Both the position numbers and the translations under genes were made by a program. From Candidatus Saccharimonas sp. (GTDB lineage Bacteria; Patescibacteriota; Saccharimonadia; Saccharimonadales; Saccharimonadaceae), in NCBI GenBank assembly GCA_015256915.3, contig CP076101.2, positions 1 through 32,000 on the forward strand: 32,000 bases of DNA, written 5' to 3'. Shown one piece after another: positions 4,695 to 28,976 of this stretch. The notes below the pieces were generated by a model. That model searched no databases and was not told where the DNA came from. It saw only the letters and a list, made by a program, of their open reading frames with translations. How positions within the stretch are numbered: position 1 is the first letter of the stretch; each line of letters opens with the position of its first letter.

Positions 4695-4697
4695 ATT

Positions 4698-9583: not shown

Positions 9584-11443
9584 TTAAAATAATTCATTCG
9601 GGTCGGCGTAACCGTTAGTCATCATATTATCACCCTGACGGTTTTTTGAACTATTTGGGCTGGTTGAAATAAGCTGGTGTTCTGTGTCGCTGGCGATGAT
9701 TTGAATATGAACGTGATTTTGGCCTGCAAAGAATAATCCTTGCCCAACTGGGAAGTTCGAAAGGCGCTTTCGTTCTTCTTCAGTTAATTTAAAGACATCA
9801 CTCAAAACATCAACCGCACTTGAAGACTGTTTTAAAAGTAGTTGCATTGAGCTGTTCGAAACAATCGCTCGACCCATTTTCGAACCCATAAAGTCTTCGA
9901 CGTCCTGCGAAATTGTAGTAAGGCCAAGATAATATTTTCGAGCGCGTTTTGCTAAACTGAACAAGAAGTTTGCCGAATCGTCGTATTTCATTAACTGCCA
10001 AGCTTCATCCACAATAAGCATTCGTTTTTTCTGTTCAGAACGCACAATATTCCAGATGTGAGAAAGTACGATATACATCGCAACTGGGCGAAGTTCATCT
10101 TCAAGGTCGCGAATATTAAATACAACCATCGAGTTATTGATATCGATATTTGATTGTTGCGAGAAAATTCCTGCGAAAGTTCCAGTTGTGTATTTTCGAA
10201 GGCGTTGCGCTAAGCTTGGGCCACTACCATCCATATGAACCAAGGTGTCATAAAGATTATGAATTGTTGGTGGTGTTGAATTATGCGTGAGAGGATCTGA
10301 AGTGATTCCAGCTCGAGCATAAGTGTCAATAATTGCTTGATCGAGGTCAGCTTCTTCATTTGGTGAAAGTCCAATTGATTGCCCTGCACTAGTTCCGCCA
10401 AGCATTAAACGGAATAGACCGTGAAGAGTTACGATATTTGCACGAAGCGCGTTATCTGCTTCTTCGGCATCAATAACGTGCGGTAAATCGAAAGGATTAA
10501 TTCTAACATCCGAGTTTAAGCTGAGGCGAATATAACTTCCGCCAACAGCATCGCTCAATTTTTGATATTCATTTTCTGGGTCAATAATTAATACCTCTGC
10601 ACCCATCATCATTGTTCGAAGAGCTTCAAGTTTCACTGTGAAAGATTTACCAGCACCAGATTTCGCGAAAACCACCATATTTGCGTTTTCAAGCGTATAG
10701 CGGTCAAAAATTACGAGCCCATTATTGTGCATATTAACGCCATAAAGAACACCATTTTCTTGGGTTAAATCGGCGGAAGTAAATGGAAATGAAGTTGAAA
10801 TTGCGCCTGTGTTCATATTTCGACGAATTTGAAGTTGGTCAGAGAGTTGTGGCACGGTAGATTTTAAGCCTTGTTCCTGCTGGCTTGACGCAACTTTCGA
10901 AAACAGCATTTGTTGGCCAAGCATTGTTTCAACTTTGCTTCGAACGAAATTAAGCTCATCAAGACTGTCGGCGTAAATTGTTAAATATAAGCCAAAACGG
11001 AAGAATTTTTCAGCACCAAGTTGTAATTGATCTCGGAGTTCTTCAGCATCATTCAGAGCAGCTTCAAGCGCTGGATCTCGGGTTCTACCTTTTTCATTAT
11101 TAATCGAAAGATCGGCTTCAAGCTGAGTAACTTTTCGACGAAGGTTTTTCATGACAATTTCAGTTTCAACAGGATAAATAAACATTGAAACATCTAAAAC
11201 TTCATCAGCATTTAAGATTGGTGAAGCCCATCCAGTATAAAGCTGGCGTGGATAACCATAAACATAAATTGTTTGACCATATTTTGTGCCAAGTCGAAAA
11301 TATCCTGAGTGAAATTCAAGACTTGATGGTGCGATTAAATCTCGCAAAGTGTTAATACCAGTTAAAAACGCTTGTTCAACTTCAGCTTGTTCTTGTGCTC
11401 GCTGTTGGGCTGCAATATCAACCGCATCTTTTTTCTTCGCCAT
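9584..11443 (-). CDS. virB4: VirB4/TrsE/PrgJ-family type IV secretion ATPase
   Basis: 619 aa. N-terminal domain typical of Gram-positive VirB4 (YFRLGTKYGQTIYVYGYPRQLYTGW). Walker A (AKSGAGKSFTVK) and Walker B (RMLIVDEAWQL). Confidence 0.9.
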   Translation of the reverse strand: MAKKKDAVDIAAQQRAQEQAEVEQAFLTGINTLRDLIAPSSLEFHSGYFRLGTKYGQTIYVYGYPRQLYTGWASPILNADEVLDVSMFIYPVETEIVMKNLRRKVTQLEADLSINNEKGRTRDPALEAALNDAEELRDQLQLGAEKFFRFGLYLTIYADSLDELNFVRSKVETMLGQQMLFSKVASSQQEQGLKSTVPQLSDQLQIRRNMNTGAISTSFPFTSADLTQENGVLYGVNMHNNGLVIFDRYTLENANMVVFAKSGAGKSFTVKLEALRTMMMGAEVLIIDPENEYQKLSDAVGGSYIRLSLNSDVRINPFDLPHVIDAEEADNALRANIVTLHGLFRLMLGGTSAGQSIGLSPNEEADLDQAIIDTYARAGITSDPLTHNSTPPTIHNLYDTLVHMDGSGPSLAQRLRKYTTGTFAGIFSQQSNIDINNSMVVFNIRDLEDELRPVAMYIVLSHIWNIVRSEQKKRMLIVDEAWQLMKYDDSANFLFSLAKRARKYYLGLTTISQDVEDFMGSKMGRAIVSNSSMQLLLKQSSSAVDVLSDVFKLTEEERKRLSNFPVGQGLFFAGQNHVHIQIIASDTEHQLISTSPNSSKNRQGDNMMTNGYADPNELF

Positions 11444-11445
11444 AA

Positions 11446-12222
11446 TTAAAATCCTCCTTGATCTGGTCGCTCACCTTCAGCTTTTCGAACGAATAAACTT
11501 GCTGTATCACGAAAATCGCCCAAAGGTTCATAAACAGCTGTATCTGGGTTATAAACATTATAATAAAGTTCACCGAGTTCTTTGGTGTTTAATTGAACTG
11601 ATTTAATTCCCATTTGGTAAAGACCGCCAGTAATTGAATCAACGCGTTTTTTAATTTCTTCGCGTGCTTTATCCCAAGTGTTGCGGTCGATTTTCGAAAT
11701 TTGACCACCTGGTTTTGCAAAAATTTTACCAAAAAATCCTTTTGCTGAACCCTTTAAATTGTTTAAATCGCCACTCGGATAATAAGGAACCACAATAAAG
11801 AAAGATTTATCCATAATATTCGCACTTCGGCTAAGGCTATCAATAAAGTTAATGTAATCTTCCATTAAGTCGCCAAGCAACATATTGTCTTGCGCTACTT
11901 GAATTTCAGCCAATTTATTTAAATAGGGCTCAATATCAACTCGTTGTGAGCGAACCAAAATCTGAATTGGAAAAGTTAATGCGTTCAAAAAACTTTGATA
12001 AGAATATTCTACACCCTCGCGTTCTCGTGAGCTCATAAGATCGAAGTTAATTGATTTGCAAGCAATAACAGCACGAAAGCTTCCGTCGCGCATTACAACC
12101 ATTCCTTCGCGAAGTTCGGCAATGTCAAGCGAATTTTGCGTTGAAGATGGATTTGTTGGAGCACTTATATTTGTTTGATTTTGGCTCTGATTTTGTTGAT
12201 TATTAACTTGATTATTATTCAT
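11446..12222 (-). CDS. Hypothetical T4SS-operon protein (Q/N-rich N-terminus; resembles a VirB4 N-terminal-type domain)
   Basis: 258 aa ORF packed between the PrgI-like gene (1 nt gap) and virB4 (2 nt gap). The pattern LDIAELREGMVVMRDGSFRAVIACKSINFDLMSSRE...FLNALTFPIQILV resembles the VirB4 N-terminal domain layout. There is no ATPase motif. Confidence 0.55.
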   Translation of the reverse strand: MNNNQVNNQQNQSQNQTNISAPTNPSSTQNSLDIAELREGMVVMRDGSFRAVIACKSINFDLMSSREREGVEYSYQSFLNALTFPIQILVRSQRVDIEPYLNKLAEIQVAQDNMLLGDLMEDYINFIDSLSRSANIMDKSFFIVVPYYPSGDLNNLKGSAKGFFGKIFAKPGGQISKIDRNTWDKAREEIKKRVDSITGGLYQMGIKSVQLNTKELGELYYNVYNPDTAVYEPLGDFRDTASLFVRKAEGERPDQGGF

Positions 12223-12223
12223 A

Positions 12224-13654
12224 TTACCTCAATGAAATTACTACTTCTTTTTCACCCAAGTCGACCTCGTTCGAATTTTCTTGGGTTTTCTTTTCCTTAT
12301 CTGCTAGTTTATTTGCTTGGCGCGCAAGCGTTTCTACCGAAAGGTCTTTTCCTTCTGAAACTAACCTTTTCATTTCTGCGCTAATCTTATTTACAGATTC
12401 TCGTTCTGTGAAGTTTCTTCTATTTAAAAAAGGATTATTCTCTGGATTAGTAGAAATTCTAACTTTCGGATCTCGCTTTTCACGTTCAATAGTTTCATTA
12501 TTTTGCCTAATTCGTTCAAAACTGTTGTTAATTCCTTCTAAATCTTGATTAAAATCATCTGGCGGATTTTCGAAATGGTTTTGTGACTCTGATTGTTGAG
12601 CTGGTTGTGGTGCGGGTGGTGTAAAATTCGAAAGTGGCTGTGGTGAAGGCTGCGTAAATTGTTGTGGTTGATCTTGCCAATTTGGTGAAATAACTGTTTG
12701 ATTCATTGAGTCTGGGTAAGGATTGTAATTTAAATGAATATTTTCATCAAAATTTTGTTGCGGTTGATTTTGCCAATTTTTATTTTGCTGAAAATTATTA
12801 TAATTTTGCGCTTGCGATTGATTCCAATTTTGCAAATTTGAAAAAGCCCCATTTTGCATTTGTGGCTGATTGTGGTTAAAATTCATTTGGTATTGATTTT
12901 GCTGATTTTGAGAAAAAGCCGTTGGCTTAACTTCAGCTGGTTCTAAAACTTGAACATCTTCAAATTTAATGTTGTCTGAACCTTCGTATCGATTTTTAGG
13001 GTCGAAATAATAAGTTTTGTCTTGAATATTTTCCGAATTTTCATTTGTAAATTGCGCTAAATTTCGTGCCATATCAAGATTTTGCATAATTTGCTGTTTT
13101 CGTCTCTGGTCGTGTTGGTTTAATAAATTATCAACATTTGAAGAAACTCGTGAATTATCAAACATATCTTCAGCTGCACGAGCTTCATTCGAATATTCTT
13201 CACGAACAGTTGTATTGATCGGTGCAATAGAGTGTTTAATAGCCCACCCTTCAGTATCAACAATATCCGCCAAGTAGCTGAGTCTGCGTGAGGCTTCATT
13301 TTGTGAAAGTTCTTTTGTGAGGTGTTCTTCTCTATTTACCGGTGCAGAAATTTGAATTAAATGTTCCACGCCATCTGGCTGCCAAAAACGCTTGTTTGGT
13401 TTTAAATAAAATGAAACAACCGCTGCAAGATAAGTTTCCATTGGTTGGTCTTTTCTAAGCGGTAAAGCGAGCGCACCGAAAAAGATAATAATAGGTAGTG
13501 GTAAAATAATTAACCCCGGGAAAATTCCCCAAAGAAAAATCTCCAGCGCAATACAGCCTGCCACAATAATCAGGTAAATGAATTGCCGAAAGTTAAACGG
13601 CCCAAGCAATTTGTCATCAGCCTCAACGTCTTGAGGAACTTTATAAACGCTCAT
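12224..13654 (-). CDS. PrgI-family (VirB3-like) membrane protein with a long Q/N/P-rich C-terminal extension
   Basis: 476 aa. The N-terminus (VPQDVEADDKLLGPFNFRQFIYLIIVAGCIALEIF...) followed by two TM helices matches the PrgI family pattern. The C-terminal two-thirds is low complexity (QNQQNQYQMNFNHNQPQMQN...NWQNQPQQNF...NWQDQPQQF). Confidence 0.6.
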   Translation of the reverse strand: MSVYKVPQDVEADDKLLGPFNFRQFIYLIIVAGCIALEIFLWGIFPGLIILPLPIIIFFGALALPLRKDQPMETYLAAVVSFYLKPNKRFWQPDGVEHLIQISAPVNREEHLTKELSQNEASRRLSYLADIVDTEGWAIKHSIAPINTTVREEYSNEARAAEDMFDNSRVSSNVDNLLNQHDQRRKQQIMQNLDMARNLAQFTNENSENIQDKTYYFDPKNRYEGSDNIKFEDVQVLEPAEVKPTAFSQNQQNQYQMNFNHNQPQMQNGAFSNLQNWNQSQAQNYNNFQQNKNWQNQPQQNFDENIHLNYNPYPDSMNQTVISPNWQDQPQQFTQPSPQPLSNFTPPAPQPAQQSESQNHFENPPDDFNQDLEGINNSFERIRQNNETIEREKRDPKVRISTNPENNPFLNRRNFTERESVNKISAEMKRLVSEGKDLSVETLARQANKLADKEKKTQENSNEVDLGEKEVVISLR

Positions 13655-13758
13655 TCTTTATTTGCCCACTTCTCCTTATTTCAATAATATTAATTTTAAC
13701 ATATTTTCGAAAAAAAATAAAGCTTAAAAATAAAATAGGCAAAACATTTAGATTCTGC

Positions 13759-16464
13759 CTATTTCTTGTCTTTAATATTTTCAGGTTTCCAATTTCCACC
13801 CAAAACTTTATCATAAAGATCTCTATTATTTCGTTCAATCTCTTTAAGCATTTTGCGAATTTCAGCACCTTGCACAGCATTGAGTTTTCCGTATTCTGAA
13901 GGGTTTTCATTAATCGCCTTAACACTTTCGAGTGTGGATCTAATGGTTTCATTCGACATATTCGAAATTGCTGATTTATCCCAAATGATTTTCATTGCGT
14001 CATTTGAAGCTTTAATAATTTTATCATCTGAGACATTTTTAGCGTAATTGTCGTGAATGGCATTATAAACTTCTTTCGAATTCATACCATTTACAGCAAT
14101 ATTTTCAAGTGCTGCACCACCAATAAATTGAAGATCGTCTTTTTTGGTTTTCTTGAAAGCTTCAACCAAGTCGTTGCGGTTAGCGTTTAATTCCCCACCA
14201 ATTTCAGTTTTACCAAGTGAATCAATAGCACCTTTTAAGTCGGTCGTTCCCATAAACTTTTCGGCTGTTGCAGCGCGTAAGTTTTTAGTAATTTCGAAAT
14301 TAATTCCATCTTTCTGGATTTTTTCACCCATATTTTTCGAAAAGATTTCGCTATAATCACTACCTGAAAAATTAAGTGATTTTGTGAGGTTTGTGAGTGA
14401 TTCGACTTCTTCTTTGTTCTCTTTCGAAGCTGCTACTAAAGAACTTGCAAGCGCCGAGACTTTTCCAGCTTCACCACGCACACCAGATGCGGTTTCAAGC
14501 AAGTCGTTGCTATAGCGCATATTATTTGCCATTGCATTATTGAGTGAAAGATTATTATTCTTTTCAGCCAGTTTAAGAGCATTTGTTTGATTCATATTAT
14601 CAACAAATCGAAGTGCTTGCTCGCCAAATTTCCCACGTAGAGCTTTTAGTGATGCTTCACTTAAATCAACAACACCAGTAATGTTTCCATTATCATCTTT
14701 TTTAAGCGTTGAATTAAATAATTCTGCTTTAATTTGCGAAAGTCCAGCATTTGTGCTTGCGGTTGCACGATTGAGAGCTTCGGTAGCTAACATTTCTTGA
14801 TACTGAGTATCTGAATTTATTAAATGCTTTTTGCGAGCATTATAATACATGTTTGAAAATGCATTCGAACCTTCTGGCATATTTTGAATTGCATCTCGTC
14901 TTTCATTTTCAAGCTCCGCAAAGCGTTCTTTTTGATATAATTCTGCAATCGATTTTGAAGCACCTATTCGACGTTGGCGGTTGTAGTTCATCTGATTAAT
15001 TCGTACAGGAAGTGAATTTGGCTTTTCTGCAATTGCACGATTTCGATACATTTCTTGGTTTTCTGAAAGGAATTTCTTTACACGATCAACCGGACCTTTA
15101 TTCGGATTATTGATAATTCCGGCAAATTTACCAAGCAGACTACCGCTAATTCGCATAATTGTTGGCGTAATCGCTAGCGGCACAACTTGTACTACGGCAC
15201 CAAGTAAGAAAATTAAAAAGCTACCGTTCGAACTTGCAATAATTGTTGTTCCAATTAATTGAGAACCCCCAAAAAGAAGTGAAATTAAAGGATACATCAC
15301 GAGCATTGTTGTGAATAAATCTTTCCATTTTTCGAACCATTTTTCAGTATTTGGTAGAATATTCGCTGCAAATGCAAGTGGTGCTAAGAAAACTAAAACA
15401 ATAATGATTGCCTGTCGTGCAGCTAAAATTACTAAAGCTACAACTGCCGAATAAATTACTGCAACTAGTGCTCCAAGAATCATCATTACTGCAGCACCAA
15501 TATTACCCATAGTTGCAACCGTTACAGTGTAAGCACCATAAGCCACCACGCCAGTTCCGCTCAAAACCGCAGCGGTCATATTTGACCAATCAAGATTAGC
15601 TGTTTTTACCTTATTTTCACCACCACTGTTAAAAATGCTATCTCTAATTCCAATTAAAAGATTTTGAGTTTGTGCTCCTAAGATATTCGAAATATCAACT
15701 AGAATTGCACAAATATAATAGGAAACATTAATTAAAATTGCTGCAATAATTAGTTTTGGTAATAATTTTTTAATTCCGTAATTACTAATCCCAAAACCTG
15801 TTATTTGCGAATAAATTACGAAAACAAATCCAATCACAAAAAAGACGTTTGCGACATTTCGCATATAATCCCAAACTTGAAAAAGACCAGATTGATTTGA
15901 TGTATAAAGTGGTTGTACTCGTAAAAATGCTTGGAGCCAGTCATAAATACCGTCCATCCATTTCGAAATTGTATTAGCAACCATACAAACCATCCAGCCG
16001 CCCCCACCTTCAACACTACAAAGTGACTTATCTTCGTCTTTCGAAACGCCATCAACTTTAACATCTTGTGCTTCACCGTTTTGTTTTACATTCCCGAGTG
16101 CGCTTACATCAAATGAATAAATTTTTCCGCTTGAAGTATCATTCTCATTATCAAGAGCGATTACTGTTGTTTTGTTTTCACCAGCATTTAATGAAGAATT
16201 TTCGGCATAAAGTTTTTTTGAACGAATTGATTCTGGAAATCTTGAAGTGTCAGAAACTTTTGAGTATGTTTTTCCGTTATATGTTATGCCATTTTTTGAA
16301 GAATCTGTCCATTTTGCTCCGTCAAGAGCAAGAGCGATATTCGAATTAAAAAATCCCAAGATTGCGACTACTGTAAAGATCGCGACAAAAAATCCATTTC
16401 GAAAATCTTGAGTTTTTGCTTTTTTAAACCTCGCCAAAGTTTGCATATGACCTGATTTTATCAT
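13759..16464 (-). CDS. VirB6/TrbL-like polytopic T4SS channel protein with a large hydrophilic C-terminal domain
   Basis: 901 aa. N-terminal TM/signal anchor, an ectodomain of about 150 aa, about 6-7 TM helices (residues about 195-470), then a soluble tail of about 430 aa. First gene of the minus-strand operon. Confidence 0.65.
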   Translation of the reverse strand: MIKSGHMQTLARFKKAKTQDFRNGFFVAIFTVVAILGFFNSNIALALDGAKWTDSSKNGITYNGKTYSKVSDTSRFPESIRSKKLYAENSSLNAGENKTTVIALDNENDTSSGKIYSFDVSALGNVKQNGEAQDVKVDGVSKDEDKSLCSVEGGGGWMVCMVANTISKWMDGIYDWLQAFLRVQPLYTSNQSGLFQVWDYMRNVANVFFVIGFVFVIYSQITGFGISNYGIKKLLPKLIIAAILINVSYYICAILVDISNILGAQTQNLLIGIRDSIFNSGGENKVKTANLDWSNMTAAVLSGTGVVAYGAYTVTVATMGNIGAAVMMILGALVAVIYSAVVALVILAARQAIIIVLVFLAPLAFAANILPNTEKWFEKWKDLFTTMLVMYPLISLLFGGSQLIGTTIIASSNGSFLIFLLGAVVQVVPLAITPTIMRISGSLLGKFAGIINNPNKGPVDRVKKFLSENQEMYRNRAIAEKPNSLPVRINQMNYNRQRRIGASKSIAELYQKERFAELENERRDAIQNMPEGSNAFSNMYYNARKKHLINSDTQYQEMLATEALNRATASTNAGLSQIKAELFNSTLKKDDNGNITGVVDLSEASLKALRGKFGEQALRFVDNMNQTNALKLAEKNNNLSLNNAMANNMRYSNDLLETASGVRGEAGKVSALASSLVAASKENKEEVESLTNLTKSLNFSGSDYSEIFSKNMGEKIQKDGINFEITKNLRAATAEKFMGTTDLKGAIDSLGKTEIGGELNANRNDLVEAFKKTKKDDLQFIGGAALENIAVNGMNSKEVYNAIHDNYAKNVSDDKIIKASNDAMKIIWDKSAISNMSNETIRSTLESVKAINENPSEYGKLNAVQGAEIRKMLKEIERNNRDLYDKVLGGNWKPENIKDKK

Positions 16465-16552
16465 AATTTAACCCTTTTGTCAACCTTAAAATTAAGTTTT
16501 TTAGAATAAAACACTTGCTTTTTCCCTAAAAATGGTTTAAAGTATAATTATC

Positions 16553-17026
16553 ATGGTAAACAAAATAAAAAATATAATAATAGTTGGGTTAGTTTTGATG
16601 AGCTTTTTTACGTCTTTTCAGAGTGTTTTCTCTTTGAATTATACTTTTGCGAAAGAAGTGGTTCAAGATAGTAATGGTAATTATGTGGACCCTAGTGATT
16701 TAAAATCAAAATCGGATTCAAACAGTAATTCTGACAGTAAAAAAAATAAAGATACTCCCTCTACTGAAGCAAAAACTGCAATTCTCCCTTCAGACTGGAA
16801 AATTGAAGATATTTTAAATATGGTTTTAGTTGTAGTAACTACTGGTGTTGGAATTGCAGCAGTTGGCTCGATTGTTTTTGCTGGCGTTCTATATATTACC
16901 GCTCGTGATAATGCTGCACAAGTTTCGAAAGCTAAAACAATGATTACGAATACAATTATTGGTATTATAGCTTATATTTTAATGTGGGCGTTCTTAGAAT
17001 GGATTATTCCAGGAGGAATTTTATAA
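16553..17026 (+). CDS. T4SS pilin-like (VirB2/TrbC-type) small membrane protein, paralog 1
   Basis: 157 aa: signal peptide, variable Ser/Asp/Asn-rich region, then the shared two-TM core (AGVLYITARDNAAQVSKAKTMITNTIIGIIAYIL). No Shine-Dalgarno sequence. TATAAT at 16543-16548. Confidence 0.7.
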   Translation: MVNKIKNIIIVGLVLMSFFTSFQSVFSLNYTFAKEVVQDSNGNYVDPSDLKSKSDSNSNSDSKKNKDTPSTEAKTAILPSDWKIEDILNMVLVVVTTGVGIAAVGSIVFAGVLYITARDNAAQVSKAKTMITNTIIGIIAYILMWAFLEWIIPGGIL

Positions 17027-17454
17027 TGAAAAAGATTATTCTAGCGATTTTTATAACTTTTATGCCAGTTTTATATTTTTCGAATAATGCTTATGCGGCT
17101 GGTTGTAACGATAATCAAACTTTTTTCGGTCTCCCCGCTTGGTATCGTGGATTAACTAAATCTGGCGAAGGAGGATGTCAAATTAAAAATATTGGGCCAT
17201 CTGGAAAGGGTGAAGTTACTTTAGAACAGTTTGTCTGGACAGTGGTTGCGAATGTTATTGATATGGCCTTTCGAATCGCTGGTGTCGCTGCAATAGGATT
17301 TATTATTTATGCAGGTTATCAATATATGATTGCTGTTGGTGATCCAGGAAAACTTGCGGGTGCTAAAAAATCACTAACCAATGCGATAATCGGACTAGTG
17401 ATTGCGGTTCTTGCTTCAACAATAGTAACGTTTATATTAGGAATTTTAGGATAA
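17026..17454 (+). CDS. T4SS pilin-like small membrane protein, paralog 2
   Basis: ATG at 17026 overlaps the paralog 1 stop (TAATG) and follows AGGAGGA at 17011-17017. Signal peptide (MKKIILAIFITFMPVLYFSNNAYA), Cys pair, core (AGYQYMIAVGDPGKLAGAKKSLTNAIIGLVIAVLA). The GTG start at 16984 in the ORF track is rejected. Confidence 0.75.
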   Translation: MKKIILAIFITFMPVLYFSNNAYAAGCNDNQTFFGLPAWYRGLTKSGEGGCQIKNIGPSGKGEVTLEQFVWTVVANVIDMAFRIAGVAAIGFIIYAGYQYMIAVGDPGKLAGAKKSLTNAIIGLVIAVLASTIVTFILGILG

Positions 17455-17774
17455 TGAAAGAATATAAATTTTTAGCAGAAGCATCCTTTGATAAATCAAA
17501 AGTATTAAACGGAATTGATACTTCGAATAAAAACAAAGCTAGTGATGCTTCGATGCAGAATGCTTTCAATACTGCTTTTATCTGGGCTGGAATTATCTGT
17601 GTAATTATAATTATCGTGGCTGGATTAACATTTATAACGGCTGCCGGAAATCCAGGAACAATTTCGAAAGCAAAATCTGCACTAATTTACGCTTGTGTAG
17701 GTATTGTTGTAATTATATCGGCTGCACTAATTGTTAACTTAATTCTTGGCGGATTACTAACGGGGTCAATATAA
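17454..17774 (+). CDS. T4SS pilin-like small membrane protein, paralog 3 (no obvious signal peptide)
   Basis: 106 aa. Start overlaps the upstream stop (TAATG). Core AGLTFITAAGNPGTISKAKSALIYACVGIVVIISAALIVN. The N-terminus is hydrophilic. Confidence 0.7.
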   Translation: MKEYKFLAEASFDKSKVLNGIDTSNKNKASDASMQNAFNTAFIWAGIICVIIIIVAGLTFITAAGNPGTISKAKSALIYACVGIVVIISAALIVNLILGGLLTGSI

Positions 17775-18190
17775 TGAGAAAAATAATTTTAATAATTAGT
17801 ATTTTATTTTCAATAATTCTATCACCTATCGCTTTTGCGGAAGGTGGAACTAACGGGACTAATGGTAGTGGAGGAACATTTAACGCTTGTAAACATGTTG
17901 TTTCTGGAAAGACTGCAGTTTGTTCTGGTGATTCGAAAAATGCTACAAATATTGCTAAAAATATAATCTCTATCCTCCTGTGGGTTGTTGGTATAGCGGC
18001 GGTTATTGTTATTATTTACGCAGGAATAACATTTGTAACAGCAGCCGGCAATCCTTCGAAAATTTCTCAAGCTAAAACTATGTTAATCTATGCTGTTGTT
18101 GGTTTAGCGGTTGCAATTCTTGCTTATGCGATTGTTAATTTCGTTATTAACACTTCAAGTGGAAAAGGGGTTGGCGGAGGATCATCTTGA
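17774..18190 (+). CDS. T4SS pilin-like small membrane protein, paralog 4
   Basis: 138 aa. Start overlaps the upstream stop. Signal peptide, Cys pair (ACKHVVSGKTAVC), core AGITFVTAAGNPSKISQAKTMLIYAVVGLAVAILAYAIVNFVIN. Confidence 0.8.
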   Translation: MRKIILIISILFSIILSPIAFAEGGTNGTNGSGGTFNACKHVVSGKTAVCSGDSKNATNIAKNIISILLWVVGIAAVIVIIYAGITFVTAAGNPSKISQAKTMLIYAVVGLAVAILAYAIVNFVINTSSGKGVGGGSS

Positions 18191-18338
18191 AGCTAAGGCA
18201 TATCTGTCGAATCTAATAATTTAAGTGACTTAACTAATATTGAATCGCAAAGCAAAAAAATGGTGAAAATAATTCAGGATAAAGTTCGAGCGGTTCGAAC
18301 AGTTCAAATAATAATTAAAACAATATAAGGAGAATAAA

Positions 18339-18728
18339 ATGAAGAAAATTTTAATAACTTTTGGATTAATCCTTGCGGTAGTTGGCTCTTTTGCCTTCAA
18401 TGCTGGATTTTTCGAAAAACAAGCTTATGCAAATAGTGCAGCAGATTTAATTAAACAAGGTGCAGATTCAACTGGTCAAAAAGATACTCGTTCAGCTGGT
18501 GATATTGCTAAAGATGTTGTAAGTATAATGTTCTTTATTATTGGTGTTATGGCAGTTATTATGATTATTTGGGGCGGAATTCGATATGTTCTTTCAGCCG
18601 GAAATAGTGCTGCTCTCACTAGTGCAAAAAATACAATTGTCTATTCTATTATAGGTTTAATTATTGCAATCCTTGCATATGCAATTGTGAACTTTGTTAT
18701 TAATACAGTTGCGGGTGGTAATCGGTAA
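18339..18728 (+). CDS. T4SS pilin-like small membrane protein, paralog 5
   Basis: 129 aa. AAGGAGA Shine-Dalgarno sequence upstream. Signal peptide, core GGIRYVLSAGNSAALTSAKNTIVYSIIGLIIAILAYAIVNFVIN. Confidence 0.8.
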   Translation: MKKILITFGLILAVVGSFAFNAGFFEKQAYANSAADLIKQGADSTGQKDTRSAGDIAKDVVSIMFFIIGVMAVIMIIWGGIRYVLSAGNSAALTSAKNTIVYSIIGLIIAILAYAIVNFVINTVAGGNR

Positions 18729-18786
18729 TCATAAGACTTCAAACTTAATTTTGTTTAGTTGAATGGATAACTAATAATTAAAATAC

Positions 18787-18814
18787 TTGCAAAATAGTAA
18801 AAATTTGATATAAT
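18787..18814 (+). promoter_or_regulatory. Sigma70-like promoter for pilin paralog 6
   Basis: TTGCAA (18787-18792), 16 nt spacer ending in TGa, then TATAAT (18809-18814), about 40 nt upstream of the ATG at 18854. Confidence 0.5.
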
Positions 18815-18853
18815 TTAAGTATATATAATTTAAGAAAGGAAATGTAATTTAAA

Positions 18854-19270
18854 ATGAAAAATATTGTAAAAATGGCTCTATTGACCGCCGCAACAATATT
18901 CGCTGTTGGTGCTACTACATTTGCAACAATTCCAGCTTACGCCGCTGATTGTAAAGTTACTGGCGGTTTGAAGTCTGCTGATAGCTGTGCTAAAGGTGTT
19001 CAAGAAGAAAACGGCGGTCCGACAAGCTTGTTTGATGGCGACTCTCCAATTTTCACAACAGCAATTAATATTATGCTCTTCATTATTGGTATTCTTAGTG
19101 TGATCATGCTTATTTACGGTGGAATCCGATATGTTCTTTCGAGTGGTGATTCTGGAGCTGTTCAAAATGCTAAAAATACAATTATGTATGCTATTATCGG
19201 TCTTGTAATTGCAATCCTTGCTTACGCAATTGTTAACTTCGTTATTCATTCGATTACTAATAAAGAATAA
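18854..19270 (+). CDS. T4SS pilin-like small membrane protein, paralog 6
   Basis: 138 aa. Signal peptide, Cys pair (DCKVTGGLKSADSC), core GGIRYVLSSGDSGAVQNAKNTIMYAIIGLVIAILAYAIVNFVIH. Its 3' half is close to paralog 5 at the nucleotide level. Confidence 0.8.
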   Translation: MKNIVKMALLTAATIFAVGATTFATIPAYAADCKVTGGLKSADSCAKGVQEENGGPTSLFDGDSPIFTTAINIMLFIIGILSVIMLIYGGIRYVLSSGDSGAVQNAKNTIMYAIIGLVIAILAYAIVNFVIHSITNKE

Positions 19271-19364: not shown

Positions 19365-19395
19365 TCCCGAAGTCTTATACTTCGAGAATTTTATT
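19365..19395. terminator. Bidirectional terminator-like hairpin between pilin 6 and hsp20
   Basis: TCCCGAAG (19365-19372) pairs with CTTCGAGA (19380-19387) with one mismatch. A-run upstream and a T-rich tract downstream. Lies between convergent genes. Confidence 0.45.
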
Positions 19396-20653: not shown

Positions 20654-20743
20654 GGAGAGGTGGCCGAGTGGTTGAAGGCACCGGTCTTGAAAACCGGCAT
20701 GCGGTAAAACGTATCGAGGGTTCGAATCCCTCCTTCTCCGCCA
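20654..20743 (+). tRNA. tRNA-Ser (anticodon UGA), CCA encoded
   Basis: Hand-folded cloverleaf. Acceptor GGAGAGG/CTTCTCC, anticodon stem CCGGT/ACCGG with loop cuUGAaa, long variable arm, T arm GAGGG-TTCGAAT-CCCTC, discriminator G and CCA. Confidence 0.9.
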
Positions 20744-21596: not shown

Positions 21597-21673
21597 GCAC
21601 CTGTAGCTCAGCTGGATAGAGCGTTGGCTTGCGGAGCCAAAGGTCGTAAGTTCGAATCTTGCCAGGTGTACCA
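21597..21673 (+). tRNA. tRNA-Arg (anticodon GCG), CCA encoded
   Basis: Hand-folded. Acceptor GCACCTG/CAGGTGT, D arm GCTC-AGCTGGATA-GAGC (A20 present), anticodon stem TTGGC/GCCAA with loop ttGCGga, T arm GTAAG-TTCGAAT-CTTGC, discriminator A and CCA. Confidence 0.85.
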
Positions 21674-23229: not shown

Positions 23230-23319
23230 GGAGAGGTGGCCGAGTGGTTGAAGGCGCACGACTCGAAATCGTGTATGCGGGCAACCGTATCGGGGGTTCG
23301 AATCCCCCCTTCTCCGCCA
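23230..23319 (+). tRNA. tRNA-Ser (anticodon CGA), CCA encoded
   Basis: The acceptor and D regions are nearly identical to the tRNA at 20654. Anticodon stem CACGA/TCGTG with loop cuCGAaa, long variable arm, T arm GGGGG-TTCGAAT-CCCCC, then G and CCA. Confidence 0.9.
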
Positions 23320-23866: not shown

Positions 23867-24226
23867 TTTAAAAAAACTGCTATTTTTCTAATTCCGAGAA
23901 TACATTTGAAATAAAAAAGAATGCTGACAAATCAAGATTCTTTTTATGTTCACATTGATAAACATTATAAAAATTTGTCTGTTTAGCTACCAAAAAGCTA
24001 CCAATAGATTTGCAATTTTTAAAAAATAAATTAGTAGTACTATATTTAAATACCTAGTTATCTAAAAGAATAAATTTACTAGATTAGTAAATTAAATTAG
24101 ACTTTGTCAGTAATGACATTGCCATGGTTTGTTGTTATATAATCATTTATGGTTATTGAAGGAGAATACGCCAACAACTACTATGTGCTTTTTATATATC
24201 CTAGATGATTTTTACAAACACCCAGA

Positions 24227-26089
24227 TTATATATTAGCTAGCTTTGATTTGTAAAATTCTAACTCATCGTTAATTCTCATAACATAAAAAATGACTATTT
24301 GGAGCAACTCTAAGTAATTTTTTTGATGTTCCTCTTCACTTTTATAAGAAAATTTTCCATGAGAGAATTTATTTCGAATTTTCAACCCATTACCATATTT
24401 TTTATCATCCAAAATATAAGATAAATAATTACTTTCATATTCAGAAAAAAGCTTATCTGAATATTCACAATACCCTTTCTTACAAAGGTCTTCTGCAATG
24501 TCTAGTATCAATTTATCTTTATAGTATAGGCAATACGTACCTGATTTCCATAATTTATTCAAAATGTTAATTTCTTGGAAATTTGAAAACTTTATTACAT
24601 CGTTTGATAGTTTTAAAAAATTCTTTTCTATTAGAACATTTATTTGTCTTACCTGATAATCATCAAAATCTGTAATCTTCACACCTTCTTTTATATGTTT
24701 GAAGAAGGTTTTATGTTCTTTTTTCGATGAAATTAAGCTAAGTGGACTTTGGTCATAAAAAAGCGCAGAGAACAATGCAGAATTATCAGGAGTATTGTTC
24801 AATTTGATAAATTTTTTCTCATTGAATGATTTTAATGAAGCATAAGAGGAGGCTTTAGATTTAATCTCTAATAAATCTTGGTTGATTTCCCTATGTCTAA
24901 AAAAAAGTTCATATTGGTCTAGGATACTATCCATCTCACAGATTATGGATTTCCCTCTTTCATAATAAGAAGATTCTTTATTGGAAGCGTGGAAGTGAAA
25001 TCCTTTTATATTCAATTTAGTTTCTAAATAAATGTTGAAGTACCAATTAATAATCTCCTCAATATCAATATCATTTTTCTTTAGATACTCAAAATATGCA
25101 TAAAATAATAAACCATAAGAATTTTTTAAATGAGAATCGTAGTCTTCGAAATGAGCATTTGATTTTGGGGAAAAGAAACGAGTGAAGCTGAATGTTTCTT
25201 CATTCGCAACTAGCCAAGGCAATCCCGTTTCATGATTAAAGAAGCCAAGTAAATAAAAATTATTTAATAATGTCGGAAAATCATGATGTTCATCTAGTAT
25301 AATTTTATTTAAAAGAATACCATTCTCAATAGGCTTACATAATTTATCAGAATCTAAAGGCTTGATGACAACTGATATAGAGTAATGTATCCCTTCATTA
25401 GTTTCAAAATGTTTTTCCCAAAATTCCTTACTTTTTCTTTTAGCTAAAAGCTTAACCTCATCATCAAACTCATATTTGCTTAATTTTTTATAATCAACAA
25501 TTGATTGTAAATAATTTGGGTTAATATTATCTGTCTGACAATATTCTATTGCTAGATTATTTATCTCTTCATTTGTGATACCTAACTTAATGTATAAACC
25601 ATTAGAATCTATGAATTTTCCTGATTGATGATTCAAGAAAAATTCTATATTTCTAGACAGAGAGAGAAAATTTTCTTTGATAACTTGCGGAAATAGGTCA
25701 ATCAGTTGTGTAACATTTTTAAGATTTATTGTCTGGATATTGTATTTTTTTATATATGATTCAAACTGACTAACATCATCTTTATTAATTTTTTCTAAGT
25801 CTAGTACTAACTCCCAGAAGACATCTTTATAAAAAACATCAATACTATCATAGTCTATTTCAAAAATGGTAATTGGGAAATTCGCGGATAAATCGTTATG
25901 AAACTTTCTAATTAGATATTTGAATTTAGAAAATTGATTTTCTTTTTTAATTAATTTCAGGATTAAATAGGTTTCTATTAAATTATTAATTTCAGTCGAT
26001 GGCTGATATGCTTTAATGTAGTTCAGAGCTATATCGTATTGGTGTGGTTCTATTACATTGTTAGGAGCATGAAATCTTTTATGTTGCAT
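24227..26089 (-). CDS. Uncharacterised 620 aa protein with a C-terminal HEPN-like Rx4H (RNKFSH) motif, downstream partner of the Type IIL RM gene
   Basis: Uninterrupted 620 aa ORF. AAGGA ribosome-binding site about 9 nt upstream of the ATG. 78 nt downstream of, and co-oriented with, the RM gene. Very AT-rich (sampled lines about 22-25% GC). The peptide GLKIRNKFSHG (R572-H577, nt 24359-24376) followed by a helical hydrophobic segment resembles the HEPN catalytic signature. No Walker A motif. Confidence 0.5.
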   Translation of the reverse strand: MQHKRFHAPNNVIEPHQYDIALNYIKAYQPSTEINNLIETYLILKLIKKENQFSKFKYLIRKFHNDLSANFPITIFEIDYDSIDVFYKDVFWELVLDLEKINKDDVSQFESYIKKYNIQTINLKNVTQLIDLFPQVIKENFLSLSRNIEFFLNHQSGKFIDSNGLYIKLGITNEEINNLAIEYCQTDNINPNYLQSIVDYKKLSKYEFDDEVKLLAKRKSKEFWEKHFETNEGIHYSISVVIKPLDSDKLCKPIENGILLNKIILDEHHDFPTLLNNFYLLGFFNHETGLPWLVANEETFSFTRFFSPKSNAHFEDYDSHLKNSYGLLFYAYFEYLKKNDIDIEEIINWYFNIYLETKLNIKGFHFHASNKESSYYERGKSIICEMDSILDQYELFFRHREINQDLLEIKSKASSYASLKSFNEKKFIKLNNTPDNSALFSALFYDQSPLSLISSKKEHKTFFKHIKEGVKITDFDDYQVRQINVLIEKNFLKLSNDVIKFSNFQEINILNKLWKSGTYCLYYKDKLILDIAEDLCKKGYCEYSDKLFSEYESNYLSYILDDKKYGNGLKIRNKFSHGKFSYKSEEEHQKNYLELLQIVIFYVMRINDELEFYKSKLANI

Positions 26090-26167
26090 ATCTGTGATAT
26101 CCTTCTTAAATTTGCGCGTTTCTATGTGATGCTTAAAATAATTGAGTATATTTTGAAGAATACCGTA

Positions 26168-28972
26168 TTAATTTTTAGTTGACTCTTCATACATCTCAAA
26201 TAATCTTGCTACTGTTTCACTTTTTGTTAACCAAGTCTTCTTACCATCGACAACTTTCGTCATGCCATAAGCTTCCATGACGGCTTTGTCGTTAGCTTGG
26301 TGTGCTTTTCTGAGTTCGACTGGCATGGTCAATTCATCATAGAGGTCAGCTAGCGAACTTTCTGGATAGAGCGCACGTGCATCGAGAATTGCTTGAGCAG
26401 TTTTAGAGATTTTACTCTTCTGCTCCTCAGTCAATTCAGGCCAAGGGAAATTATTATAAACAATGTCTTTTGAATATCTGTAATCAGATTTCAAACGACC
26501 AGATACTGTCCTCATCCATGCCATATGGACATTTGATGTCAATATTCCTAAATCAAGTAAATCTGCATCAGGCACTATCAAAGTTCCCATAACTGGAATT
26601 GTTTTATCATCTAAAAAACCAATTGGAACATATTTTCTTCTTTCAGAAGAAACACAAGGAATAATTAGATATTTATCAGGGTTTAATTGCTCTCTAAATA
26701 GTGTTGGTGTATTTGCTAATTTTAATGATTCAGAAGTATTCGCATTGATACGAGCTTCTCTACATTTTTCAACTCTATCCAAAACTATCGGCATTGAACG
26801 GAGTTCTTTAGGTGTGATTCCTACAAGCCACAAGCAATAGCGTTCTTTATTTTGAATAAATTCCTTTGCACCAACCATTCGCTTAATCCACTTTGCAGAT
26901 TCAGGAGATGATTTGATAAAGTCGTCATACTCCGTGGCTTCAATTTTTAGATGATTATAGTCACATGGCTTATTTGGAGCAATCATTGGCTTAGCACCAC
27001 TAATTGGCTTATTTCTACTTTCTATAAAGATATTTTCAGCTTCAATCTGATAAGCATTTATATTACTTACTTTAGATTCACTTCCATTATCATAAATAAC
27101 TTTATTCGTTGTGACCGATGTAGAACTGAATCCTACAATGATACAATGAACATGAGCTTTTAAGTTTGCATCATTATTCCAAATAAAGGATTTATAGACA
27201 AAATCAATTTCATTACCCATATCAAAGATTAGTGGCCATAGAATAGAGATTTGCTCTCCTTGCATGATTGAGTTGGTCGATACAAATGCGCTCTTGATAC
27301 TTGTACCTTCCATGAATTTAGAAGCTAACAGGTACCAACTAGCAACAAAGTCTAATTTTCTATATTTCTTAGTGTAGGGAGAAAATACGACATCCATATC
27401 TTTCTTTTGTTCAGGTGTTGAATATTTTGAGCCAACAAAAGGCGGATTCCCAATAATATAACTCAGCCTATCTTTAGGTACAATTGTTTCCCAATCAATC
27501 TTTAAAGCATTTCCTTCAACAATGTTTGTATAGGACTTAAGTGGCAAGAAATCAATATTCGCAAACACAATATCTTTAGTTTCTTCCAGCATCTGACTTT
27601 CTGCAATCCAGAGAGCCGTTTTAGCAACAGAAACCGCAAAGTCATTGATCTCGATACCATAAAATTGGTTCAGTTGGACTTTGACAAGTTCTTGTCCGAC
27701 GTCAAGCGCAATAGTGTCCCCCATATAGAGCTTAATGGCTTCATTTTCTAAGCGTCTAAGAGAAACGTATGTTTCGGTTAAGAAATTTCCAGAACCACAA
27801 GCCGGGTCAAAGAATACTAGACTCGCTAGTTTTGATTGAAACTGTTTTGCTTTTTGTTCAACGATTTTAGGCTGCTTAAATTGACGAATCTCATTCAATT
27901 CATCTTTTAACTCATCTAAGAAGAGTGGATCAATAACTTTATGGATATTCTCAATAGAGGTATAATGCATCCCGCCACTACGACGTGTTTCGGGGTTGAG
28001 AGTTGACTCAAATACTGCACCAAAAATAGTAGGGCTGATTTCTGACCAGTCGAAACTAGAAGAAGCATGCTCCAAAATTAACTCACGTAGTTCATCGGTA
28101 AAATTAGGGATTTCCAAATTATTCTCGGCAAACATTCCTCCATTAACATAGGGGAAAGCAAGAAGTTCCGTATCCAAATACGGATCACGTTCTTTAATTG
28201 GCGTATCTAGTATAGAAAAGAGGTCAATTAAAGCACGCCTAAAATCACGACTACTAAAACGGGCAAGGTAATCATGAAACACCATGTGATGGCCAAAAAT
28301 ACCAGCATCTTCAGCATATAGACAAAATACTAATCGGACTATAAGTTGATTGATAGCATGAAGGCTTTCGGGGCTATCCGGATTAATATACTGCTTAAGA
28401 AGGCTTTCATAAATCTCACCGACAATCTCACCGGCTTCGATAGAAACCTTCATTTCACGTTCTAAGTGTTCATTAGTTTTGTCAATTAAAAATTCTAAAC
28501 GATAGGCTTCTTTATCCAAATCAGCAAGTTTAATGACTTTAGGTTCGCCGTTTGGTTGCTCCATATCATAAACATAGAACTCTTTAAAATTACAAGTCAC
28601 AATCCACCGTGGACGTTGAGAATATGGCAAGTTAGCAGAATATCGTTTAGCCTGTTGAAACGGTGTAAGGTAAGTTCCATCAGACTGTTTTATCGCCTTA
28701 TTAAGGTCTTTGTTTGAACCTTTTTGTTCAATTAATACTTTTGTTTTATCAATAAAGCCATCTATAAAACTAGTATGGTCAAGCATCACTGTATCTTCAA
28801 ATGTTATATACTCACTTGGGTTTTCTACTCCATAAACAGATTGAAGTAAGTCTAACCAGAAAGACTGACTATCTTGCCTTTCGTTTCCTCTATTTCCCCA
28901 GCGTTTAATAAATGCTTTAGCTTGCTTTTTTTGTTCCCGGATATTATTCACTTTGTTCTTTCTAACTACCAC
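26168..28972 (-). CDS. MmeI-family Type IIL (Type IIG-like) fused restriction endonuclease / N6-adenine DNA methyltransferase
   Basis: 934 aa single polypeptide. N-terminal nuclease-like D...EXK arrangement (SFIDGFIDKTKVLIEQKG). Gamma-class MTase motif I (FFDPACGSGNFL) and motif IV (IIGNPPFVGS). Long C-terminal target-recognition region. Apparent GTG start 4 nt after the pgi stop. Confidence 0.85.
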   Translation of the reverse strand: MVVRKNKVNNIREQKKQAKAFIKRWGNRGNERQDSQSFWLDLLQSVYGVENPSEYITFEDTVMLDHTSFIDGFIDKTKVLIEQKGSNKDLNKAIKQSDGTYLTPFQQAKRYSANLPYSQRPRWIVTCNFKEFYVYDMEQPNGEPKVIKLADLDKEAYRLEFLIDKTNEHLEREMKVSIEAGEIVGEIYESLLKQYINPDSPESLHAINQLIVRLVFCLYAEDAGIFGHHMVFHDYLARFSSRDFRRALIDLFSILDTPIKERDPYLDTELLAFPYVNGGMFAENNLEIPNFTDELRELILEHASSSFDWSEISPTIFGAVFESTLNPETRRSGGMHYTSIENIHKVIDPLFLDELKDELNEIRQFKQPKIVEQKAKQFQSKLASLVFFDPACGSGNFLTETYVSLRRLENEAIKLYMGDTIALDVGQELVKVQLNQFYGIEINDFAVSVAKTALWIAESQMLEETKDIVFANIDFLPLKSYTNIVEGNALKIDWETIVPKDRLSYIIGNPPFVGSKYSTPEQKKDMDVVFSPYTKKYRKLDFVASWYLLASKFMEGTSIKSAFVSTNSIMQGEQISILWPLIFDMGNEIDFVYKSFIWNNDANLKAHVHCIIVGFSSTSVTTNKVIYDNGSESKVSNINAYQIEAENIFIESRNKPISGAKPMIAPNKPCDYNHLKIEATEYDDFIKSSPESAKWIKRMVGAKEFIQNKERYCLWLVGITPKELRSMPIVLDRVEKCREARINANTSESLKLANTPTLFREQLNPDKYLIIPCVSSERRKYVPIGFLDDKTIPVMGTLIVPDADLLDLGILTSNVHMAWMRTVSGRLKSDYRYSKDIVYNNFPWPELTEEQKSKISKTAQAILDARALYPESSLADLYDELTMPVELRKAHQANDKAVMEAYGMTKVVDGKKTWLTKSETVARLFEMYEESTKN

Positions 28973-28976
28973 ATTA

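Follow-up and report, generated by a model that had tools for sequence, protein, structure and literature searches.

A conserved array of six VirB2-like pilin paralogs beside the T4SS of an oral Saccharibacterium

Six consecutive small genes, here P1 to P6, in the genome of a human-oral Saccharibacterium (Ca. Nanogingivalis, group G6) make up an array of VirB2-like pilin paralogs that is conserved and has already been published; it lies beside the essential Saccharibacteria (TM7) T4SS. Sequence comparison indicates that for all six genes orthology across species of Saccharibacteria follows array position, and that purifying selection acts on all six copies. On balance we think that this G6 array encodes six anciently diverged, non-redundant VirB2-like two-helix proteins which build a pilus-like conduit.

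The novelty implied by the original prediction did not hold. An "array of small signal-peptide proteins" was described in Saccharibacteria G1, G3, G5 and G6 (McLean 2018, 10.1101/258137), and six pilins with the same synteny were described in Southlakia epibionticum ML1 as SEML1_0014-0019 (Wang 2023, PMC10633639). A later survey collected 441 Patescibacteria VirB2 arrays of 2-11 tandem genes with a mean identity of about 25%, enriched in Saccharimonadia and with the T4SS near dnaA (Quinonero-Coronel 2025, PMC12102498). GenBank already carries the six proteins (QWB90978-QWB90983), three of them named "pilin", including P2 (QWB90979.1) and P6 (QWB90983.1). The existence of the array, its family assignment, its multiplicity and its essentiality are in the literature. 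What is added here is the position-specific orthology, the purifying selection, the conservation of P6, the leaderless P3 and the pattern of variation in P1 and P4. Family membership, synteny and the topology features are likewise established here, and essentiality is taken from the literature.

The gene array and its T4SS cluster

The stretch of DNA that was analysed, the window, is 32,000 nucleotides long. The six plus-strand ORFs predicted at 16553-19270 are present and encode proteins of 106-157 aa. In P1 (16553-17026, 157 aa) a signal peptide precedes a variable Ser/Asn/Asp-rich linker and the two-helix core, and an IPGG motif lies at the C-terminus. P2 (17026-17454) is 142 aa long from its ATG, while the mechanical ORF list extends it upstream to a GTG at 16984; its signal peptide is followed by an N-terminal stretch containing two Cys and then by the two-helix core. 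P3 (17454-17774) is only 106 aa long and has no signal peptide, its hydrophilic N-terminus of about 35 aa leading directly into the two-helix core. P4 (17774-18190, 138 aa) ends at a TGA (18188-18190) which truncates it relative to alleles of 175-183 aa. The predicted TAATG stop/start overlaps between P1 and P2 (17026), P2 and P3 (17454) and P3 and P4 (17774) were all confirmed in the sequence. P5 (18339-18728, 129 aa) has a signal peptide and a two-helix core with the LAYAIVNF motif, and P6 (18854-19270) is 138 aa long.

As proposed, P5 has its own ribosome-binding site, an AAGGAG upstream of its start, and so does P6. The promoter said to precede P6 stands as a consensus match only: a plus-strand promoter-like site at 18787-18814 (TTGCAA, 16 nt, TATAAT, with an upstream TG) scored 10/12 in a consensus scan, which found no convincing promoter for P1-P4. 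A bidirectional terminator-like hairpin (19365-19387), with terminator scan matches on both strands, separates P6 from a convergent Hsp20 gene, after which a ComF-like gene and a tRNA-Ser follow in the window.

We confirmed that the array is divergent from a minus-strand gene (13759-16464) for an extended VirB6/TrbL-like membrane protein of 901 aa, with the VirB4 gene further along. This protein scored 18.9 bits against TrbL (PF04610), which is sub-threshold, and it is syntenic with SEML1_0013, which is TrbL/VirB6-like by structure-based annotation (PMC10633639); it is the presumed assembly platform. The rest of the T4SS cluster (4023-13654, minus strand) was recognised by Pfam matches, and by NCBIfam for TrsD. 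It comprises a PrgI/VirB3-like gene (12224-13654), a TrsD-like gene (11446-12222, E 1.4e-7), a VirB4 ATPase (9584-11443) that matches, at 100% identity, proteins annotated as Ca. Nanogingivalis or Saccharimonas VirB4-like ATPase, a 1055-aa M23 peptidase (6353-9520), a lysozyme/GDSL protein (4698-6353) and a PEGA protein (4023-4694). Among the window ORFs the cluster lies next to dnaA/dnaN/recF. The array thus shares a T4SS cluster with VirB4 and VirB6-like genes, the context of a VirB2/TrbC pilin. VirB5, a relaxase and a coupling protein were not found among the window ORFs scanned against Pfam. A seventh, P6-like copy lies elsewhere in the genome.

The Southlakia locus has the same layout, namely a VirB6-like gene on the minus strand, six PF18895 genes on the plus strand, Hsp20 (minus), a ComF-like gene (plus) and a tRNA-Ser, near dnaA. 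The Southlakia proteins measure 132, 185, 103, 126, 127 and 138 aa against 157, 142, 106, 138, 129 and 138 aa in the window, so that a short third gene (103-106 aa) and a sixth of 138 aa are common to both. The genus differs, however, and in the window P1-P4 overlap through TAATG and the low-complexity tail of P4 is gone. Essentiality was measured only in Southlakia, where each of the six orthologues scored essential by Tn-seq at T1 and T2 (PMC10633639 Table S1). For the upstream genes this may partly reflect polar effects, since there are only 11-15 insertion sites per gene.

Family membership, topology and related systems

The predicted T4SS pilin-like paralogy was borne out. P2-P6 pass the Pfam gathering cut-off of the T4SS_pilin family PF18895 (26.6 bits) with scores of 51.1, 44.6, 40.2, 45.7 and 43.3 bits, respectively. 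P1 falls just under it at 23.6 bits and is joined to the others by profile-profile comparison, in which the P1 orthologue family matched the P6 orthologue family with an hhalign probability of 98.8% (E 1.4e-16). PF18895 was also matched by 16/16 position-1 orthologues at E<=0.01 (best 8.8e-8). The VirB2/TrbC family PF04956 gave sub-threshold matches only: no paralog of the window exceeded its cut-off of 27.9 bits, the best being P2 (21.1 bits) and P3 (19.1 bits), and at E<=0.01 it was matched by a single P6 orthologue out of 23 and a single P1 orthologue out of 16.

All six proteins match the NCBIfam model NF045849, "pilin-like conjugal transfer protein", which represents the Mbov_0395 family of Mollicutes ICEs, at 27.5-35.0 bits (E 1.8e-6 for P1 to 8.5e-9). 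None reaches the model cut-off of 40 bits. By this measure the six are related to the equivalog family and are not members of it.

The C-terminal core described in the original prediction is real, with five invariant columns in our alignment of the six proteins (A1), and the PF18895 scores of 40-51 bits for P2-P6 (P1, 23.6) place it far beyond chance. The LAYAIVNF motif included in the predicted consensus is confined to P4-P6. A1 also contains the loop G-[ND]-[PS]-x-x-[IV]-x-x-AK, and identity to P1 in this alignment is 20-29%; in this last respect the array is one of the kind surveyed across Patescibacteria (PMC12102498).

Hydropathy places an N-terminal signal-peptide-like segment, with predicted cleavage, and two hydrophobic helices in P1, P2, P4, P5 and P6. 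P3 belongs to the array but lacks the N-terminal signal peptide, which corrects the earlier reading. Its only hydrophobic segments lie at 36-67 and 72-106, and position 3 is without an N-terminal hydrophobic segment in 20/21 species. An AF2 model of P6 shows the signal-peptide helix and a hairpin of two helices (66-95 and 100-134) with pLDDT of about 80-87. The VirB2/TrbC architecture, a signal peptide, two hydrophobic helices and a short charged loop, is therefore found in the array, P3 having the two helices only.

In these features, and in the virB3, virB4 and virB6 homologues that adjoin, the array resembles the classical small VirB2/TrbC pilins such as Agrobacterium VirB2 and R388 TrwL. 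It differs from these diderm systems in its sub-threshold sequence similarity, its monoderm host and its six or seven paralogs in place of one. The comparison of Agrobacterium VirB2 with pilin-array profiles was not significant in hhalign (probability <1%), and a profile search of PDB sequences did not find a pilin. Foldseek returned nothing significant; a fold as simple as a helical hairpin does not discriminate.

A monoderm precedent is PrgF(B2), a VirB2-like protein essential for pCF10 conjugation (ter Beek et al. 2025 preprint, 10.64898/2025.12.18.695078). It is a small two-helix protein with a charged loop, whose residues were shown to be open to labelling from the outside; it belongs to a FATA-type T4SS and is encoded just upstream of VirB6-like and PrgI genes. 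In contrast to the array proteins, PrgF is single-copy, has 75 aa and lacks both a signal peptide and an N-terminal extension. Homology of PrgF to the array was not detectable (hhalign 0.6%) and PrgF gave no PF18895 match.

The survey of Patescibacteria arrays suggested that the pilin was perhaps co-opted from diderm systems (PMC12102498). In our analysis the same module was found on a Bacillota plasmid, Pontibacillus NZ_CP062975. It has two tandem PF18895 genes, genes for VirB6-like and PrgI-like proteins, a 274-aa gene, VirB4 (37% identical to the window VirB4) and a 1050-aa M23 peptidase. There the pilin genes are two, not six, and have the same orientation as the rest of the cluster.

Orthology, selection and strain variation

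We found that the nearest neighbour of each paralog in other species usually occupies the same position: 20/21 for P1, 18/21 for P2, 17/21 for P3, 13/21 for P4, 18/21 for P5 and 21/21 for P6. Position-specific orthology is weakest for P4, and positions 4 and 5 are less cleanly orthologous. Colinear order is kept in arrays of five, seven and eight genes. Species carry between 4 and 8 copies, and the number changes mostly among P4-P6-like copies. Compared with the close genome L006, dN/dS was 0.01-0.34 for all six genes, with P3 at 0.01. The core of P6 is 64% identical between species, as against 37-50% for the other paralogs.

Close genomes differ most in P1 and P4. P1 is the most variable copy, with 72-95% identity and two linker alleles, while P2, P3 and P6 keep 95-100% identity within the closest set of genomes (L001-L006, L009 and L015). 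The differences observed fall in two regions that are predicted to be exposed: the N-terminal linker in P1 and the C-terminal tail in P4. In L001, L002, L004-L006, L009 and L015, P4 carries a 44-aa Ser/Asn/Gly-rich tail. DNA alignment with other strains indicated that the window allele lost this tail by a GGA>TGA nonsense change. The 148-bp gap between P4 and P5 is thus not the true intergenic spacer it had appeared to be. It is a spacer-like, decayed remnant of the plus-strand tail coding region (18191-18338) that aligns over its full length with the in-frame tail of other strains, contains stop codons and a 4-bp deletion, and has the P5 Shine-Dalgarno AAGGAG at its 3' end. The exact 138-aa P4 allele occurs on 88 contigs.

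A proposed heteromeric conduit and the alternatives

The original prediction offered two accounts of the multi-pilin set, which itself stands. Our data fit its major and minor subunits: non-redundant components that share a single pilus-like conduit are favoured over a repertoire of interchangeable variants. If the proteins behave as VirB2 does in the general model, Sec would export all of them except P3 and their signal peptides would be removed, and P3 would insert without a leader. In the membrane each would adopt a helical hairpin whose short charged loop faces the cytoplasm. The divergently encoded VirB4/VirB6-like machine may extract these subunits and stack them on the VirB6-like platform, giving a pilus-like conduit that would extend across the wall in the direction of the host bacterium. 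The strongest candidate for the major subunit is P6, which is more conserved than any other copy and is preceded by a promoter-like site and a ribosome-binding site of its own; the assignment draws on its conservation and a consensus promoter match only. The translationally coupled P1-P4 are candidate low-copy base, adaptor or tip subunits. Polymerisation, subunit roles and the cargo of the conduit are what we infer.

Taken further, the six position-specific paralogs and the seventh P6-like copy might come together in a defined order to form a heteromeric T4SS pilus or conduit, with P6 as the shaft, the co-translated P1-P4 as base, adaptor or tip subunits in place of the missing VirB5, and the leaderless P3 as a specialised unit close to the membrane. 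We put this forward tentatively. To our knowledge no conjugative pilus is an ordered heteropolymer of VirB2-type subunits.

The alternative that survives best is that the hairpin proteins remain in the cytoplasmic membrane. There they would be stoichiometric components of the translocon, for example lining or gating the VirB6-like channel, or would form only a very short stub through the thin wall, and they would never make an extended filament. All six are two-helix integral membrane proteins, P3 has no signal peptide, and six distinct, position-conserved and constrained paralogs suit a fixed hetero-oligomer better than a homopolymer. No report describes a pilus or conduit of these proteins in any Patescibacterium (PMC11665869, PMC12857230), and the role of a T4SS pilus in Patescibacteria has been termed "completely unknown" (PMC11665869). 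However, PF18895 and NF045849 annotate and model the family as pilin, known VirB2-like proteins show exactly such a membrane form before extrusion, and the differences seen in P1 and P4 lie in predicted outward-facing parts, which suggests surface exposure. We regard a purely membrane-resident role as possible, if rather unlikely.

The second account in the original prediction, in which the copies are alternative surface variants that serve to evade immunity or phage, does not agree with the evidence. Here the paralogs would be interchangeable major pilins, used one at a time or mixed, that set host-strain range or evade phage or immunity, an idea put forward for Bartonella and Anaplasma, which carry several virB2 copies, and suggested also for Patescibacteria in a study that favoured host-range versatility or antigenic variation (PMC12102498). 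Paralogs with only about 25% mutual identity, differences in P1 and P4 among close genomes and a copy number that shifts mostly among P4-P6-like genes would all suit such a repertoire. Against it, the copies are colinear orthologues by position, all six are under purifying selection and all six Southlakia orthologues are essential; P1-P4 are translationally coupled and therefore co-expressed; and P2, P3 and P6 scarcely differ among the closest genomes. Orthology by position and purifying selection instead favour fixed, non-redundant roles. The tandem virB2 paralogs of Bartonella, Anaplasma and Rickettsia, also from host-associated bacteria (cited in PMC12102498), are read as antigenic variants, whereas the copies here are ancient, position-specific and individually constrained; we thus rejected recent interchangeable duplicates of the Bartonella/Anaplasma type. 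A variant repertoire is, in our judgement, improbable.

A transcriptome study of TM7x found the six genes transcribed, three of them up in stable symbiosis, and labelled them "six putative effector genes". That label, the induction and the five signal peptides would agree with Sec-secreted effectors delivered to the host, but the mature proteins consist mostly of two long hydrophobic helices and belong to a pilin family, which is incompatible with a soluble secreted effector and makes this reading very improbable. Least credible of all is one functional pilin among decaying duplicates: P4 has a premature stop relative to other strains and a decayed tail, but the stop removes only a low-complexity tail in a common allele, and six intact, constrained ORFs conserved across species already refute it.

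The product of the six pilins, for which we favour a pilus-like conduit, is central to the open question of what the Saccharibacteria T4SS does, a system that is essential for epibiotic growth (PMC11665869, PMC12857230). The Bacillota cluster with the same module offers a free-living Gram-positive system that might be a tractable model. The features added here can aid the design of experiments, both in the choice of the copy to tag as the shaft and in the regions that may tolerate epitope insertion. If true, an ordered heteromeric pilus could let the epibiont draw material from its host.

Layout of the pilin-like array and its surroundings

We found the six small ORFs of the original prediction on the + strand, here numbered P1 to P6 in gene order. 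These are P1 (16553-17026, 157 aa), P2 (17026-17454, 142 aa from the ATG), P3 (17454-17774, 106 aa), P4 (17774-18190, 138 aa), P5 (18339-18728, 129 aa) and P6 (18854-19270, 138 aa). All three expected TAATG stop/start overlaps were read in the sequence, and the ribosome-binding site expected for P5 was found as AAGGAG just ahead of the gene. The promoter assigned to P6 corresponds to a promoter-like TTGCAA-16-TATAAT with an upstream TG (18787-18814), and a terminator-like hairpin at 19365-19387 is common to P6 and the convergent Hsp20 gene. No convincing sigma-70-type promoter was seen for P1-P4, the sole candidate being a weak 9/12 match (16440-16467). A TATAAT ends 4 nt ahead of the ATG of P1, which is not preceded by a Shine-Dalgarno sequence.

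The window starts with dnaA, dnaN and recF, and the whole T4SS cluster follows directly (1-16464 including these three genes), adjoining the replication origin, a location previously noted for Patescibacteria (PMC12102498). After recF the - strand encodes, in order, a PEGA protein, a lysozyme/GDSL protein, a 1055-aa M23 peptidase, the VirB4 ATPase, a TrsD-like protein, a PrgI/VirB3-like protein and a 901-aa TrbL/VirB6-like protein, the gene for which is divergent from P1 as predicted. Proteins that match the VirB4 with 100% identity are named Candidatus Nanogingivalis or Saccharimonas. The region's best promoter-like site (16444-16483, - strand; TTGACA-17-TAAAAT, 11/12, with TG) overlaps the first ATG (16464) of the VirB6-like ORF, and its -10 element ends 8 nt ahead of a second in-frame ATG (16446). 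Translation of the VirB6-like gene may begin at Met7, from an mRNA with almost no leader.

On the 3' side of P6 lie the Hsp20 gene (-), a ComF-like phosphoribosyltransferase gene (+) and a tRNA-Ser, which follows the ComF-like gene as SEML1_0022 does in Southlakia. Three tRNA genes are present: Ser-TGA (20654-20743), Arg-GCG (21597-21673) and Ser-CGA (23230-23319). Further on, 24000-29000 is very AT-rich (GC 0.26-0.27 at 24-26 kb) and contains an ORF of 620 aa (24227-26089, -) that lacks a Pfam match, adjoining a complete MmeI-type restriction-modification enzyme (26168-28972, -). This stretch may be a defence islet.

Family membership of the six proteins

The proteins had been proposed to belong to a T4SS pilin-like family. 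Using Pfam, P2-P6 scored above the gathering cut-off of PF18895 (T4SS_pilin) with 40-51 bits, and P1 fell slightly short (23.6 bits, cut-off 26.6). We rejected the possibility that P1 lies outside the family, since 16/16 position-1 orthologues collected (the counterparts of P1 in other Saccharibacteria) match PF18895 and the position-1 family aligned with the P6 family in hhalign (probability 98.8%, E 1.4e-16). P1 also matches NCBIfam NF045849 (Mbov_0395 family pilin-like conjugal transfer protein), as do all six proteins, with E of 1e-6 to 1e-9 and scores under the 40-bit cut-off of that model. By these profile tests the six are PF18895 pilin-like proteins, P1 being joined through its orthologue family. 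Their exact GenBank matches are consecutive (QWB90978.1-QWB90983.1), and three are already named pilin.

The link to classical VirB2 held less well. The best of the six reached 21.1 bits against PF04956 (classical VirB2/TrbC), which is below the 27.9-bit cut-off. In hhalign, neither the alignment of the six paralogs nor that of the P6 family significantly matched Agrobacterium VirB2, and the P6 family did not significantly match pCF10 PrgF; these results do not exclude homology because single sequences were compared with shallow profiles, where power is low for short hydrophobic proteins. A search of PDB sequences with the P6-family profile returned chance matches only (E >= 0.2). Similarly, Foldseek comparison of an AF2 model with the PDB gave no match at E<=0.001 and just generic helical hairpins, a two-helix hairpin being too simple for diagnosis. 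The proteins therefore resemble VirB2/TrbC in architecture and context, while sequence membership is not demonstrated.

As predicted, the C-terminal two-helix core is common to all six proteins (20-29% identity to P1, five invariant columns). The proposed consensus stands as a shared core, but its LAYAIVNF motif is present in P4-P6 only and not in all six. The predicted-extracellular N-terminal regions of P2 (26, 61), P4 (39, 50) and P6 (33, 45) contain cysteine pairs, which may form disulfide-bonded exposed loops. Such a pair is absent from P1, P3 and P5, and the one Cys of P3 is in a helix.

Orthology, constraint and strain variation

A search with VirB4 gave only near-identical sequences, so the P6 alignment was used to fetch 80 related loci from species-representative genomes, in which pilin-like ORFs were then located by HMM. 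The genes generally stand in tandem; counting every locus, including those truncated at a contig end, we found arrays of 6 (30 loci), 5 (12), 7 (8) and 8 (4) genes. Among six-gene arrays of different species, the nearest neighbour in another species was the protein at the same position for 20, 18, 17, 13, 18 and 21 of 21 (P1 to P6), with same-position core identities between species of 41, 39, 37, 40, 50 and 64%. On this comparison the six paralogs are position-specific orthologues. Position-specific HMMs revealed colinear architectures in other array sizes as well, for example 12346 in seven loci and 1123456 in four, and changes in size mostly involve P4-P6-like copies or duplication of P1.

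Individual positions carry features of their own. An invariant C-terminal PGG motif is particular to position 1. The third paralog is the shortest, with 93-108 aa in most arrays and a hydrophilic N-terminus of ~35 aa; since the N-terminal hydrophobic segment is absent in 20/21 species, a short leaderless third paralog is a conserved feature. Most Saccharibacteria species encode a seventh, P6-like paralog with a conserved C-terminal ..PTNV or ..PTDV motif, 1.5-5 kb downstream of P6 and on the other strand. Copies of the seventh paralog include 9935-10402 in locus L046 and 11904-12308 (-) in L021, and others are in L040, L041, L043, L051 and some 30 further loci. The copy of the window's lineage is ~22 kb away, beyond the window. 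This gene may be the 'virB2' TM7x_00135 of the TM7x literature.

Compared with a close genome (L006), dN/dS was 0.34, 0.06, 0.01, 0.12, 0.05 and 0.04 for P1 to P6. Judged from these ratios, purifying selection acts on all six. P1 has the highest dN/dS of the set, at 0.3-0.5. In the closest genomes (L001-L006, L009 and L015), identity is 100% for VirB4 and 95-100% for P2, P3 and P6, with more variation in P1 (74-95%) and P4 (85-93%). The differences seen affect the N-terminal linker of P1 and, in P4, a C-terminal tail of 44 aa rich in Ser, Asn and Gly. Both regions are predicted to be exposed, since the standard VirB2 topology places the two termini on the outside (10.64898/2025.12.18.695078). 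Genomes that are otherwise near-identical carry one of two very different alleles of the P1 linker (16620-16800, residues about 24-80), SLNYTFAKEVVQDSNGNYVDPSDLKSKSDSNSNSDSKKNKDTP... or IIISNYGSSYAFAEELVEDGNGNLTTPNGNN.... In the window P4 ends at a GGA>TGA change (18188-18190) where related strains read on for ~44 codons, and the 148-bp P4-P5 'spacer' (to 18338) is the decaying P4 tail, in which further stop codons and a deletion of 4 bp are found. We rejected P4 as a pseudogene, as the loss is limited to the low-complexity tail and the truncated 138-aa allele is common (88 contigs in public data).

Possible origin and proposed role of the array

A tblastn search of plasmids with P2 gave three weak matches only, one of which led to a cluster on a megaplasmid of Pontibacillus sp. 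(Bacillota; NZ_CP062975, 11722-21275 of the fetched locus L083). Two tandem PF18895 genes are followed there by VirB6-like, PrgI-like and 274-aa genes and thereafter by a VirB4 37% identical to that of the window and a 1050-aa M23 peptidase. This is the same module as the Saccharibacteria T4SS, with two pilin-like genes instead of six. Since the pilin-containing module exists in ordinary Gram-positive bacteria, borrowing of the pilin from a diderm is weakened. The finding points to pilin genes that arrived together with the monoderm-type T4SS and not from a diderm system.

The array was already described by McLean et al. and Wang et al. In Southlakia epibionticum ML1, SEML1_0013 is VirB6-like (-) and SEML1_0014-0019 (+; 132, 185, 103, 126, 127 and 138 aa) are all PF18895 proteins, each scored essential at T1 and T2, with Hsp20, a ComF-like gene and tRNA-Ser on their 3' side (Wang et al., Table S1/S2; PMC10633639). 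This region is the same locus as the window array. Across 383 Patescibacteria assemblies, Quinonero-Coronel et al. 2025 counted 441 pilin-gene arrays of 2-11 members, with a mean identity of 25%, and proposed versatility towards different host strains (PMC12102498). Transcription of the six genes is known from TM7x, where they are labelled putative effectors and where three of them increase during stable symbiosis.

The evidence best supports a reading of the six as non-redundant VirB2-like subunits of the T4SS that is essential in Saccharibacteria. If they behave like VirB2 and PrgF, each would first be a membrane hairpin whose short charged loop lies in the cytoplasm; extraction and stacking on the VirB6-like platform would then yield a pilus-like conduit. 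The leading candidate for the major subunit is P6, the most conserved of the six and equipped with a promoter-like site and a ribosome-binding site of its own, and P1-P4, which are coupled in translation, are candidate minor subunits. We infer these steps; the literature describes no filament of these proteins. The main rival is that the six remain in the membrane as fixed channel parts. The multi-pilin repertoire of the original prediction was partly supported: a multi-subunit set stands, but a repertoire of surface variants is unlikely in view of the orthology, the constraint on each copy, the translational coupling and the essentiality. Effectors are excluded by the hydrophobicity of the proteins, and decaying duplicates by dN/dS. 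Given the published descriptions, the six-pilin array itself was already known.
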